Positions 11,814-18,618 are shown, counted from the first letter of the stretch. The stretch is 64,000 bases of DNA from an uncultured Nitrospiraceae bacterium (GCA_963846575.1 CAWJWJ010000002.1:1536001-1600000), one strand, 5' to 3'. Made by a program: numbers and translations. Notes: generated by a model from the sequence alone, not told the origin.

Positions 11814-12266
11814 TTACTGCACCATGATGGTCCCGTTTGATTTCGTCAGGCTCCCTCTGTCTTCGGAGGAGGGCCGCACTGAGTACGTCACGGTGCCGAT
11901 CCGGGTAAAACAGAGGCCGGCTGTTTCATTGCTTGCCAGGGTGGTCGAGTTGTCTACGCCCATGCCCATGGCCTTCGAGAAGCCGTTGCGACAGGACACT
12001 CGATTGTCCAGCGGACCTTCAATTGCCACGATGACGGATTCCTGTCGCTGATTGATCCAGCGTACTTCGTCACCGGCATGTGCGGTCAGAGTCGTCGGCG
12101 TCACGGTATCGCTGATGACGATGTTCTTGACCATCCCCGTTTTCATCCCGACGTCCGTAGCAGACTGAGTTTTCGACGCGGTGGGCGAGCTTGAGCAAGC
12201 GGCGACCATTAAAAACGTTAGGGCCAGCATGGAATTCAAAAAAACCGAAGGGGCAGTCGTCTTCAT
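11814..12266 (-). CDS. Cupredoxin-fold-like lipoprotein lacking canonical Cu ligands
   Basis: Lipobox VAAC; P..L....GDEVRW.N, F...GT..Y; paralog of 18184-18618. Confidence 0.7.
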   Translation of the reverse strand: MKTTAPSVFLNSMLALTFLMVAACSSSPTASKTQSATDVGMKTGMVKNIVISDTVTPTTLTAHAGDEVRWINQRQESVIVAIEGPLDNRVSCRNGFSKAMGMGVDNSTTLASNETAGLCFTRIGTVTYSVRPSSEDRGSLTKSNGTIMVQ

Positions 12267-14131: not shown

Positions 14132-16240
14132 ATGGCCACCAAGACATCATCGTCATCTACTCGCACCTCGAAGCCTGCACTCCATACTGATAGCGTCGAC
14201 TCCGAACCGGCTGCCCCACGAAAAAAAGCTACATCACCGGAGAAGGCTCCGCCGGCAGTGACGGCGGTGGAGATGGGTACCCGCCAGCGTGAAATTTCCG
14301 TTTCGGAGTTTTTCACGAAGAACCGGCATCTTTTAGGGTTTGACAATCCCCGCAAGGCTCTCCTGACCTGCGTGAAGGAAGCGGTTGACAACTCCCTGGA
14401 TGCCTGTGAAGAAGCGGGCATCCTTCCTGACGTCACCGTGAAGCTCGAAACCGTGGTGGAGGGGACCGCTGCCGTCACACCAGGTCAAGCCACGCGCTTC
14501 CGTGTGACGGTGACCGACAACGGCCCCGGCATCGTACGCGCCCAGATTCCGCGGATCTTCGCAAAGCTGCTGTATGGGTCGAAATTTCACCGCATGCGCA
14601 TGAGCCGGGGCCAACAGGGCATCGGGATTTCCGCCGCCGGGATGTACGGCCAGCTCACCACGGGCAAGCCGGTGAAGGTCATTTCGCGCACCGGCCCGCG
14701 CGCTACCGCGCATTATTTCGAGGTACAAATCGACACGAAGAAAAACGAGCCGCTGGTCCATGAAAATAAACAGATCGACTGGACCCAGTCCCAGGGCACC
14801 GAGGTATCGATCGAGGTCGAAGGCCGGTACCAGAAGGGACGGGCCTCCGTTGATGAGTGGTTGGAACAGACGTCGATTGCCAACCCGCACGTGCGGCTGG
14901 TGTATCACACGCCGGAAGGGGAAACGAAGGAGTATCCCCGGACCTACCACGAGCTTCCCCCGTCGCCGAAAGAGATCAAGCCGCATCCCTACGGGATTGA
15001 ATTCGGTGTGTTGCTCAAGATGTTGCAGGATACGAAGAGCCAGACGGTGGCGGGTTTTCTGGCGGGCGACTTTTGTCGTGTGTCACCGGCATTGGCCGAG
15101 GAGATCTGCAGGGCGGCCAAGTTGCCCCTCGGAACCAAACCACGGGCCGTGAAACCGCATCTCGCGGAGGTGCTGTACAAAACGATCCAAACGACCAGAA
15201 TCATGGCCCCTCCGACGAACTGTATTTCGCCGATCGGTGAGAAGGCCATCCTTTCCGGCCTCTATAAACAGATCAAGGGTGAATTTTATACGGCCGTGAG
15301 TCGTCCGCCCGCGGTCTATCGGGGCAATCCCTTCATCATCGAAGCCGGGTTGGCATTCGGCAGGGGACCGGAAGATTCTGCCAAGCCGCAGCAGGCTAGC
15401 ATGCCGCTGGCCGAAGGCGAGGATCAGGGGCAGGATACCGAACTCGCGCGCGTGATTCGTTATGCCAATCGAGTGCCGCTGCTGTTTCAGCAATCGGCTT
15501 GTGCGACCTTCAAGGCGGTGCTCAATACGAAATGGCGCAACTATGGCATGACGCAGTCCCGTGGCGCACTTCCCGCCGGGCCGATGGTGATCTTCGTCCA
15601 TATGGCCTCCGTGTGGGTGCCCTTCACCAGCGAGTCGAAAGAGGCCATCGCGGACTATGACGAAATTCAGAAAGAAATCACGCTGGCGTTACGCGAGGCC
15701 GGGCGGCGCCTCGGTATTTTTCTTCGGCGCAAGGAACGGGCTGCCAGTGAATTTCGACGCCGCAACATTTTTGAGCTCTATATCGAAGAGGTCGTCGAGG
15801 CCTGCAATCGTCTCAAAGGCGGCCATCTCCCCACCGAACAGTTAAAGGCGCAGCTGCACAAGGTCGCCAGCTCACGCACCGGCGGCCTTAAAACGGATGA
15901 AGCCTTGGGCAAGACCGGCGCGGGACCGGAAGGACTGCCGCATTCGATCATTGTGACTCTGGAGGGAGTAGAGGGGGAGCCGGAGTCCGCTCAGGAGATT
16001 GCAGCGCCGACCGTGATTCCACGCGATCCGCCTTCCGTCGAGCGCTCCGAGCCGAGGGTGCCGGCTAAGTCCCCGCGAACTCCTGGGGCGGGTGGCCGGC
16101 GTGAAAGGAGCAGGGTTCCCGGAACCCCGAAAGGCAAGGGCGGACAGCAGGATCTGTTTGTCCGAGGCGGCCCGTCGGTTAAGAAAACCGTGCCAGGGAC
16201 CAAACCGGCGAAAGCGCCCGGGGCTCGGAAAAGGAAATAG
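14132..16240 (+). CDS. top6B: DNA topoisomerase VI subunit B
   Basis: EISVSEFF.KN.HLLGF, KEAVDNSLDACE, DNGPGI, SRGQQGIG, RYANRVPLL, VPFTSESKEAIA. Confidence 0.97.
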   Translation: MATKTSSSSTRTSKPALHTDSVDSEPAAPRKKATSPEKAPPAVTAVEMGTRQREISVSEFFTKNRHLLGFDNPRKALLTCVKEAVDNSLDACEEAGILPDVTVKLETVVEGTAAVTPGQATRFRVTVTDNGPGIVRAQIPRIFAKLLYGSKFHRMRMSRGQQGIGISAAGMYGQLTTGKPVKVISRTGPRATAHYFEVQIDTKKNEPLVHENKQIDWTQSQGTEVSIEVEGRYQKGRASVDEWLEQTSIANPHVRLVYHTPEGETKEYPRTYHELPPSPKEIKPHPYGIEFGVLLKMLQDTKSQTVAGFLAGDFCRVSPALAEEICRAAKLPLGTKPRAVKPHLAEVLYKTIQTTRIMAPPTNCISPIGEKAILSGLYKQIKGEFYTAVSRPPAVYRGNPFIIEAGLAFGRGPEDSAKPQQASMPLAEGEDQGQDTELARVIRYANRVPLLFQQSACATFKAVLNTKWRNYGMTQSRGALPAGPMVIFVHMASVWVPFTSESKEAIADYDEIQKEITLALREAGRRLGIFLRRKERAASEFRRRNIFELYIEEVVEACNRLKGGHLPTEQLKAQLHKVASSRTGGLKTDEALGKTGAGPEGLPHSIIVTLEGVEGEPESAQEIAAPTVIPRDPPSVERSEPRVPAKSPRTPGAGGRRERSRVPGTPKGKGGQQDLFVRGGPSVKKTVPGTKPAKAPGARKRK

Positions 16241-16248
16241 GACAGCGT

Positions 16249-17355
16249 ATGGCACAGGCGAAACCGAAGAAGAACGGCGCGGTGGAAAAAAAACTCGTGG
16301 GAATGGCCGATGTGGTGATAGCAGCTGCGCAGCGGGCCAAGGACCCGACGTTTGCGATCCCCATCCGCGCGCTCTCGAACGTCTCGTTCAACCCCCGCAA
16401 GGGTTTGATCGAAATGGGAGAAAAGAAGCAGGCCCGTTCATTTTTTAATGTCGGGATGGCCAAAAAGTTCATGCAGACGATGCTGGTCGCCGATGCGCTC
16501 TCGGAGCTGCAACGGGCGGCCCTGACCACTTCGCTGAGAGAGATCTACTACCGTACCAAACACACCATTCAGGATTCGCATGAGAACACCTTCGATACCC
16601 AGGACGAATCCGATCCAATCATTGAGGATTTGGAGGTCTCGCTGGTGGCGTTGCGGGAAGAACTGCACGTCCGGGCGGAAAACAGCGGGAGCATCGTCGG
16701 GCCGGTGGTGTTCGGTGACGATGGGGACCGCGTGGATTGCGCCAAGCTCGGAAAGGGCGGCTACTCCGTTCCCTCGATCGTTGAGCCGGAATATCTCGAG
16801 ATCCGGCGCTGCACGGCGGACTTCCTCCTGCTGGTTGAAAAAGGTACCCAGTGGAACCGGTTATCCGAAGACAAGTTTTGGCGGCGGTACAACTGTGTAC
16901 TTCTGACGGGGAACGGACAGCCCCCGCGGGGTGTCCGGCGGCTGGCGCGACGGCTTCATGAGGAACACAAGCTGCCGGTCTACGTCCTCGTCGACAACGA
17001 TCCCTGGGGGTACTACATTTATTCGGTGGTGAAGCAAGGCTCGATCAACCTGGCGTTCGAGAGCCAGCGGATGGCGATTCCCAAGGCAAAGTTCATCGGG
17101 CTCTCCAGCGCCGACCCGGAACGGTATGAACTGCCACGCAACGTGGGGATCAAGCTGAACGAGAAAGACATTACCCGCGCCAAGGAGTTGCTGAACTATC
17201 GATGGTTTCAGAAGCCGGCCTGGCAGGAAGAAATCAAACGGATGCTCGCCAACGGGCTGAAGTTCGAACTGGATGCCCTGGCGAACAAAGACTTTCAATA
17301 CCTGACTAAAAAGTACCTGCCACGGAAGTTGAAGGAAAAGGACTGGCTGGATTAA
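16249..17355 (+). CDS. top6A: DNA topoisomerase VI subunit A (Spo11-like)
   Basis: SLREIYY catalytic Tyr motif, F..Q.ESD..IEDLE, VEK, D.DP.G..I TOPRIM, K.ELDAL. Confidence 0.97.
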   Translation: MAQAKPKKNGAVEKKLVGMADVVIAAAQRAKDPTFAIPIRALSNVSFNPRKGLIEMGEKKQARSFFNVGMAKKFMQTMLVADALSELQRAALTTSLREIYYRTKHTIQDSHENTFDTQDESDPIIEDLEVSLVALREELHVRAENSGSIVGPVVFGDDGDRVDCAKLGKGGYSVPSIVEPEYLEIRRCTADFLLLVEKGTQWNRLSEDKFWRRYNCVLLTGNGQPPRGVRRLARRLHEEHKLPVYVLVDNDPWGYYIYSVVKQGSINLAFESQRMAIPKAKFIGLSSADPERYELPRNVGIKLNEKDITRAKELLNYRWFQKPAWQEEIKRMLANGLKFELDALANKDFQYLTKKYLPRKLKEKDWLD

Positions 17356-17426: not shown

Positions 17427-17732
17427 ATGAATATGGTCATGCTGGTGTTCCGTTCTTCGCTCAAGGAGCGGGTCCATGCACTGCTGGAACAGTGTGACGT
17501 CCGCGCCTACACCGAAGTTCCCGAGACAATAGGAGCGGGGCAAGCAGGCCCGGCGGAGGGTGTGTCCTTTTACCCGGGGGTCAACAGCGTGGTCATGGTG
17601 GCGATGGACGACGCCCATGCAGACCGGGTGGAGCAGAGTGTGAAAGAGTGGTGTGATGAGGTGACACAGAAGCCCGGTGGGCTCAAACCGGCCATCACGC
17701 TCTTCACCTGGCCCTGCCGGCGATTAATTTGA
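17427..17732 (+). CDS. P-II-like small protein (PG0541-like)
   Basis: YT......G.G..G...G....PG.NS pattern, 101 aa; GAAGG RBS. Confidence 0.65.
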   Translation: MNMVMLVFRSSLKERVHALLEQCDVRAYTEVPETIGAGQAGPAEGVSFYPGVNSVVMVAMDDAHADRVEQSVKEWCDEVTQKPGGLKPAITLFTWPCRRLI

Positions 17733-18183: not shown

Positions 18184-18618
18184 TCAGGAACTGCGTTTCG
18201 TTGGGGCAGACCGTTCCACGCGGATCGTGCCTGTGGGAGTCATCGCACCCTGGGGATTGTCGGCCTCAAGCCAGACGTTGAAGCGAAGGGTCGCGGCCTT
18301 CGAGAAGCAGAGACTAACATACTGAAGCGGAGCGATCGTGACGCTGTCTTGTACGACTCCGAGTTGTGAAAAGCCCTTGTCGCACACGAATAAATCGGGT
18401 CCCTGGTCTCCAAGCATCCGCAGGCGAACCGCATGTTCGTTCAGATTTTGCCAGCGGACCTCGTCGCCCACCTGCACGATCAGCTGACTTGGCGCGACCT
18501 CCGTTCTGATATTGAAATAACGTACGGTACCAGTCAGGCGGGGATCGGGTCTGGAACTGCAGCCCGTTTCGAGGCCTAGGGCAAGCAGGACAAACAGGAT
18601 CAGCAAAGGACGCAGCAT
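18184..18618 (-). CDS. Cupredoxin-fold-like lipoprotein lacking canonical Cu ligands
   Basis: Signal peptide with GC; APSQLIVQVGDEVRWQN, C.KGFS, SLCF. Confidence 0.7.
   Translation of the reverse strand: MLRPLLILFVLLALGLETGCSSRPDPRLTGTVRYFNIRTEVAPSQLIVQVGDEVRWQNLNEHAVRLRMLGDQGPDLFVCDKGFSQLGVVQDSVTIAPLQYVSLCFSKAATLRFNVWLEADNPQGAMTPTGTIRVERSAPTKRSS

Follow-up and report, generated by a model that had tools for sequence, protein, structure and literature searches.

The 64,000-nucleotide stretch analysed here, hereafter the window, comes from an uncultured Nitrospiraceae bacterium (GCA_963846575.1, CAWJWJ010000002.1:1536001-1600000) and carries on its plus strand the adjoining genes for the two subunits of topoisomerase VI (topo VI), top6B and top6A. 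Subunit B, encoded at positions 14132-16240 (702 amino acids plus stop), ends in a tail, modelled as disordered, that holds the pentapeptide QQDLF. We propose that in Nitrospira this tail motif is probably a binding site for the bacterial sliding clamp, DnaN, by which topo VI would be tethered to clamps on replicating DNA. We describe below the motif and its conservation among Top6B tails, its likeness to known clamp-binding motifs and its predicted docking on DnaN, the role that such docking would give to topo VI together with the alternatives to it, and lastly the genes themselves and their surroundings.

The QQDLF motif in the variable tails of Top6B

QQDLF is encoded at 16145-16159 (cag cag gat ctg ttt), corresponds to residues 672-676 of Top6B and has two glycines directly upstream. 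It forms the core, and the predicted DnaN-binding part, of an extended motif KGKGG-QQDLF-V (residues 667-677; 16130-16162, plus strand) that was delimited by sequence, conservation and a docking model. An earlier note on the window had claimed an isolated GGQQDLF in the tail of Top6B past the transducer domain, and this is what the DNA encodes. The note had also described the tail as about 100 residues long and rich in proline, lysine and glycine; the length is close to the 108 or so residues that we find (residues 595-702; 15914-16237, plus strand; delimited by an AlphaFold2 model and by composition), while the composition is only partly as claimed, the tail being rich in proline, glycine, arginine and lysine. 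The last 94 residues of the protein contain 15 prolines, 13 glycines, 11 arginines and 9 lysines, and a single phenylalanine, that of the motif. In the AlphaFold2 model of Top6B (47-row alignment; mean predicted local distance difference test score, pLDDT, 81.5), residues 595-606 and 608-702 score below 50 and are almost without secondary structure, with none over residues 608-702, so the motif does lie within a modelled flexible tail, as had been supposed. When the window's own tail was shuffled 20,000 times, a Qxx[LM]F motif arose in 10 of the shuffles.

The motif is widespread among related proteins. QQ[DAET][LM]F is present in 21 of the 22 Top6B tails from the same genus, and among 88 distinct complete Top6B proteins from the Nitrospira clade and its relatives Qxx[LM]F is found in 45, where shuffling of each tail leads to an expectation of 0.11. 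All 45 carriers fall inside one clade of 74 rows (support 98) in a tree from which exact duplicates, open reading frames (ORFs) cut by contig ends, ORFs of fewer than 600 residues and two proteins lacking the anchor motif (L091 and L097) had been left out. The commonest variants are QMALF (10), QQDLF (6), QQELF (6), QQALF (5) and QIALF (5), with others including QLALF; Gln at the second position is the state of the window's subclade and accounts for 21 of the 45 motifs. Conservation extends into the flanks, which over the 45 tails read K at -5, K at -3 and G at -1, followed by Q, [QMIL], [AED], L, F, [AV] and [ED]. The distance from the motif to the C-terminus ranges from 22 to 41 residues, and 45 of the 58 phenylalanines in 7,729 tail residues are the motif Phe.

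The surrounding tail, by comparison, varies a great deal. When 65 tails, each of 65 residues, were aligned, mean column identity came to 24%, yet at least 90% of rows have the first Gln of the motif (Q35 of the tail), and the consensus is QxALF. An alignment of this kind had been put forward earlier as a check, and it finds Gln, Leu or Met, and Phe kept in place; judged from sequence, Qxx[LM]F has been retained in tails that vary elsewhere. Beyond the clade, no motif was seen in the outgroup tails of the Methylomirabilota type and of Manganitrophaceae, and no Qxx[LM]F was found in the last 110 residues of Top6B outside the Nitrospira group, among about 90 representatives at 50% identity with at least 560 residues.

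A second conserved tail motif, DLLG, was noticed in 15 of the 88 Top6B tails (L036, L045, L046, L049, L054, L059, L060, L063-L065, L067-L069, L071 and L072), where it stands 59-68 residues from the C-terminus. It accompanies Qxx[LM]F in 14 of these 15 tails and is absent from the window's tail.

Likeness to clamp-binding motifs and predicted docking on DnaN

A 2024 review (PMC11139829) gives natural clamp motifs two forms, Q-aliphatic-x-[L/M]-[F/L] and a longer one in which a further residue precedes the last. These motifs are frequent in disordered termini, their Gln enters subsite II of the clamp and their last two hydrophobic residues enter subsite I, and changes at position 2 are tolerated with a drop in affinity (PMC11139829). 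The likeness of QQDLF to the published motif, to which the earlier note had drawn attention, holds at positions 1, 4 and 5 and fails at position 2, where the window has Gln in place of an aliphatic residue. The QMALF, QIALF and QLALF of its relatives agree with the published pattern in full, and two Binatia/delta-type tails (L090 and L092) contain QMSLGF, which matches the six-residue form. With the clamp clients Pol II, Pol IV, Hda and MutS (PMC11139829), the window's motif shares Q1, L4 and F5, a flexible location and, by prediction, the placing of Gln in subsite II and of Leu-Phe in subsite I; unlike those clients, the protein is a type IIB topoisomerase, its position 2 is Gln and its binding is predicted by a model. 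The motif also lies 27 residues before the C-terminus and not at the C-terminus as in known clients. Neither 'topoisomerase' nor 'gyrase' is mentioned in the review.

We also considered the window's motif as a PCNA-interacting protein (PIP) box, Qxx[LIM]xx[FY][FY], and rejected this assignment, as no aromatic pair follows at positions 7-8 of QQDLFVRG. Counterparts of QQDLF occur elsewhere in this genome, in proteins known or expected to be clamp clients: QMELF in MutS (within a Ser/Pro-rich C-terminal linker), QCNLF in ImuB and QTSIF in a piece of DnaE. QQDLF closely resembles the motif of MutS.

The structure of a complex was predicted for two copies of Nitrospira DnaN (25-row alignment) with the 65-residue tail (65-row alignment), alongside three controls. 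The interface score ipSAE (interaction prediction score from aligned errors) was 0.61, 0.61 and 0.62 for DnaN with the tail, versus 0.00-0.01 for the controls (best 0.01), and the mark set for this score is attained by 116 of 157 solved complexes versus 2 of 215 mismatched pairs; a pass at this mark means that the model recognises a likeness and is not a demonstration that the window's copy binds. At least 44% of contacts are shared between the runs. The tail residues confidently placed at the interface are 33-39 (GGQQDLF, residues 670-676 of Top6B) and 43-53. The contacts with the least predicted error join tail L38 to DnaN residues 176, 178-181, 252, 257, 356, 370 and 372, tail F39 to residues 176, 178 and 252, and tail Q35 and Q36 to residues 179, 330, 354 and 372-374.

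These positions were transferred to E. coli DnaN by BLASTP of the Nitrospira protein (32% identity). The contacts of the Leu and Phe correspond to T172, G174, H175, R176, L177, P242, V247, V360 and M362, in subsite I, and those of the two Gln residues to H175, N320, V344, M362, P363 and M364, in subsite II. The model thus predicts that Gln672 and Gln673 would occupy subsite II, and Leu675 and Phe676 subsite I, of the pocket that lies between domains II and III of DnaN, a predicted pose that matches the one described for clamp motifs (PMC11139829). A structure model of the peptide with DnaN was the other computational check envisaged at the outset; in it the motif docks canonically, at a score of 0.61 where the best control reached 0.01.

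A proposed link between topo VI and replication, and its alternatives

Two contigs make up the genome of the window, which is 99.93% complete and has a dnaA-dnaN-gyrB-gyrA cluster. Exactly one gene of the GyrA/ParC type and one of the GyrB/ParE type are present, which means gyrase but no topoisomerase IV. One such gene each was likewise found in 24 of 24 genomes of the same genus (the two matches in one of them, G022, are contig-end fragments), and Top6B was detected in 22 of these 24. The sister family f2 has two such genes in 6 of 6 genomes, and families f3 and f4 have one such gene and no Top6B. The absence of topoisomerase IV fits a role for topo VI as decatenase. Nitrospiraceae have already been given as topo VI-positive and topo IV-negative by Allen and Maxwell (2024, PMC11302465), who call for more work on the role of topo VI in bacteria and cite it as a preferential decatenase; in the accessible part of their paper 'clamp' refers to the GHKL clamp only and the term 'PCNA' does not occur.

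In the mechanism that we propose, an A2B2 enzyme would present two clamp-docking tails, and the roughly 75 residues that link the folded core to the motif would give each tail the reach to bring the enzyme to DNA crossings near the clamp. In B. subtilis and E. coli, clamps are a mark of DNA that is being or has just been replicated, and docking would therefore concentrate topo VI, the one specialised unlinking enzyme of this genome, at intertwined sister duplexes. The basic last 26 residues may add a further weak contact with DNA, and the Gln at position 2 suggests a clamp affinity that would be modest and exchangeable. From this we infer that topo VI could act behind the fork. The decatenase behind the fork in E. 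coli is topoisomerase IV, which is positioned by MukBEF and SeqA (PMC11253446); it differs from topo VI in being a type IIA enzyme and in having other partners, and no clamp-binding motif is described for it in the accessible part of that paper.

Clamp-type motifs also occur in other lineages of Top6B. One of the Top6B family representatives was found to end in a PIP box, and its relatives (Methanomethylicus, Methanosuratus, Verstraetearchaeota) have a terminus of the form KK-Q-x-T-L-[DE]-x-[FY]-[FLWI] after a Pro/Lys-rich tail in 49 of 50 cases, 39 by a stricter pattern and 10 more that end in FI. Examples of these ends, from proteins P0112 and P0151-P0199, are QHTLDAFF, QSTLEQFF and QFTLEEYL, and they suggest that archaeal topo VI docks on PCNA in Methanomethylicia/Verstraetearchaeota. 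Top6B proteins of the Polyangiaceae type, including Pendulispora (P0205, P0215, P0220, P0252 and P0274-P0381), form a separate bacterial clade, in which 97 of the 120 proteins listed have a basic tail followed, among the last 12 residues, by Qxx[LM][FLIVM]. The motif is of the QLxL[LIVM] type, in most cases QL[ST]L[LIV] at the extreme end; 48 proteins match a strict pattern, and QLS[LF]PE ends 7 of the 23 proteins without the motif. By these surveys there are, therefore, three Top6B lineages in which a flexible basic tail is combined with a clamp-type motif suited to the lineage's own clamp. Whether clamp tethering is a recurrent adaptation of topo VI that is matched to the host domain, by a PIP box for PCNA in Methanomethylicia and by a DnaN-type motif in Nitrospira and Polyangiaceae, both without topoisomerase IV, is in our estimation evenly poised.

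NucS/EndoMS is a published precedent for a host-matched switch of clamp motif. This repair nuclease of archaeal type, found in archaea and Actinobacteria, has a C-terminal PIP motif for PCNA in the former, and in the latter a motif of five residues, the last two being LF, for DnaN (PMC8228993). Top6B is divided in a similar way, the Methanomethylicia proteins having a PIP box and those of Nitrospira and Polyangiaceae clamp-type motifs; stimulation by the clamp has been measured for NucS (PMC8228993), whereas for topo VI the link proposed here is a prediction from sequence and a model. Nothing that we found in the accessible literature, subscription journals lying outside the search, describes a clamp motif for topo VI, and the only link that came to light there was a pull-down of NucS from P. 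abyssi that contained PCNA, RFC and topo VI subunits.

A recurrent tethering of this kind would make topo VI the first type II topoisomerase that is directly a client of the replication clamp, and would account for the bacterial job of this 'archaeal' enzyme as the unlinking of sister chromosomes in step with replication. Were clamp docking of the Nitrospira tail confirmed, a topoisomerase would join the known clients of sliding clamps. An exchange of one short motif would then be seen to re-wire an enzyme shared by horizontal transfer to the replisome of a new host, and it would be explained how bacteria that lack topoisomerase IV target decatenation to new DNA. Such a finding would come as a moderate surprise to specialists, and a clamp-docking tail makes the role of topo VI in bacteria directly testable.

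Several observations weigh against the proposal that the tail motif binds DnaN. The Gln at position 2 departs from the published pattern. One Top6B of the same genus (L020, 665 residues) has no motif at all, and within the 74-row clade the motif is missing from 21 rows and weakened to Q-x-x-L-[LVI] in 8, together 29 of 74. This looser class (10 rows) was counted irrespective of position; at least L090 and L092 are chance matches elsewhere in the tail, and only in L041, L042, L044, L045, L050, L053 and L098 does the looser form stand at the aligned motif position. The tree requires at least 8 changes of state for the motif, and losses have therefore been repeated; furthermore, the proteins are kin and not independent, so the conservation counts overstate the number of independent observations. 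On the side of the docking model, the tail has a pLDDT of 39-47, a low confidence in the fold of this partner, the alignment for DnaN is shallow (25 rows at 93-97% identity), and the score may come from the memory of the model, since many clamp-peptide complexes have been solved. A dedicated decatenase is also not strictly required, because families f3 and f4 have gyrase only, with neither topo VI nor topoisomerase IV, and none of the genes flanking top6 offers a link to replication. The coupling of topo VI to the bacterial replisome, as the earlier note had it, is thus favoured by the conservation of the motif, the docking model and the lack of topoisomerase IV, and is called into question by the Gln at position 2 and by the loss or degradation of the motif in part of the clade.

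An unlikely alternative is that Qxx[LM]F is a linear motif for some other partner or for an intramolecular contact and resembles clamp motifs by coincidence; it might, for instance, contact Top6A, the ATP gate of Top6B, SMC-ScpAB/ParB or a protease adaptor. Conservation shows that the motif is under selection but leaves the partner unnamed, and the off-pattern Gln of the window's subclade would be easier to accommodate in this way; DLLG, in its 15 of 88 tails, likewise indicates that these tails can bear further docking sites. Against this stand the canonical pose that the model predicts for the motif on DnaN (the controls scored 0.00-0.01), the near-identical motifs in accepted clamp clients of the same genome, and the clamp-type motifs of other Top6B clades, each fitting the clamp of its own domain, and none of our analyses points to another partner.

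We regard as quite improbable the suggestion that the tail is mainly an appendage for non-specific DNA binding or solubility, comparable to the basic tails found on other topoisomerases, in which Leu-Phe is a small hydrophobic patch with an influence on DNA binding or self-association and makes no contact with the clamp. It would account for the charge of the C-terminal end (9 Lys/Arg and no acidic residue in the last 26; at least three Lys/Arg among the last five residues in 78 of 88 tails) and for the retention of a basic tail in many relatives after loss of the motif, but it leaves unexplained both the pocket-specific docking and the fixed Q, L/M and F at a constant distance from the end amid variation. 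That the motif has no function, being a product of chance or an inherited leftover such as the remains of an archaeal PIP box, is highly improbable. Its repeated losses in the clade and its absence from L020 would be natural on such a view; yet 45 tails carry it against 0.11 expected by shuffling, only 10 in 20,000 shuffles of the window's tail produce it, it persists in tails about 24% identical per column, and QQDLFVRG has no PIP-box aromatic pair. Chance or inheritance alone was rejected on the strength of the shuffles and of the low identity of the tails.

The top6 genes and their surroundings

Top6B and Top6A of the window are an intact topo VI pair. The product of top6B, a gene identified by its ORF and by Pfam, NCBIfam and PDB matches, contains a GHKL/Bergerat-fold ATPase domain (HATPase_c, PF02518, residues 75-187, E 2.6e-09, plus HATPase_c_3) and a transducer domain (Topo-VIb_trans, PF09239, residues 360-540, E 2.1e-54), as found with Pfam. 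It scores 656.7 bits against the NCBIfam equivalog NF003218 (cut-off 274; residues 47-584) and 501.3 bits against the equivalog TIGR01052 (cut-off 380.7), and the structure 2q2e_B aligns to residues 45-555 (E 2.1e-140). Nine nucleotides past the top6B stop begins top6A (16249-17355, plus strand; 368 amino acids), identified with Pfam and NCBIfam: its product has TOP6A-Spo11_Toprim (PF21180, E 8.4e-61), TP6A_N (PF04406) and Topo_VI_alpha (PF20768) domains and scores 576.3 bits against NF003333 (cut-off 465), as is expected of the Top6A partner with its winged-helix and Toprim domains.

Along Top6B, a Ser/Thr/Pro/Lys-rich N-terminal extension (residues 1-44; 14132-14263, plus strand), which includes the putative start codon, has a pLDDT of 39-66 over its first 40 residues, and the NCBIfam and PDB matches start only downstream of it, at residues 45-47. 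The folded core (residues 45-594; 14264-15913, plus strand), as defined by AlphaFold2 and Pfam, comprises the GHKL ATPase, the transducer and long C-terminal helices; its pLDDT is mostly above 90, and the helices extend to residue 591. The archaeal Top6B proteins of Methanosarcina mazei (2q2e_B) and Saccharolobus shibatae (2zbk_B, 1mx0_A) have the same core of GHKL ATPase and transducer and a paired Top6A gene, and the solved structures (2q2e_B, 2zbk_B) reach only residues 45-556 of the window's protein, with residues 557-702 outside. M. mazei Top6B has an Ig-like C-terminal domain (PMC11302465), in place of which the window's Top6B has the basic tail, modelled as disordered, with its bacterial clamp-type motif. 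Composition marks off the basic C-terminal end of this tail (residues 677-702; 16160-16237, plus strand), which finishes in ARKRK and whose R62 (numbering of the 65-residue tail) is kept in at least 90% of rows of the 65-tail alignment; this end likely makes non-specific contact with DNA.

The ORFs flanking top6 encode a DUF6279 protein, a P-II-like protein below the cut-off, a DUF1800 protein and three proteins without a Pfam match. The P-II-regulator-like ORF lies just 3' of top6A (17427-17732, plus strand; 101 amino acids) and scores 23.2 bits against a Pfam cut-off of 25. On either side of the top6 operon region, on the minus strand, are ORFs of 150 amino acids (11814-12266) and 144 amino acids (18184-18618) with signal- or lipoprotein-like N-termini and no Pfam match. 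Both contain GDEVRW, within a stretch that looks alike by eye, and by sequence the two may be paralogues.

Outside the window, the main dnaE (TIGR00594; G000:C2:1834385-1837440, loci L140-L145) gives a match spread over three frames, with in-frame TGA stops, in pieces that cover model positions 1-451, 385-646 and 643-1018. This essential gene therefore has two apparent frameshifts, which point to indel errors in the assembly or to something unusual. A second gene, dnaE2, is intact and adjoins an ImuB-like gene at C2:2377849-2382105.

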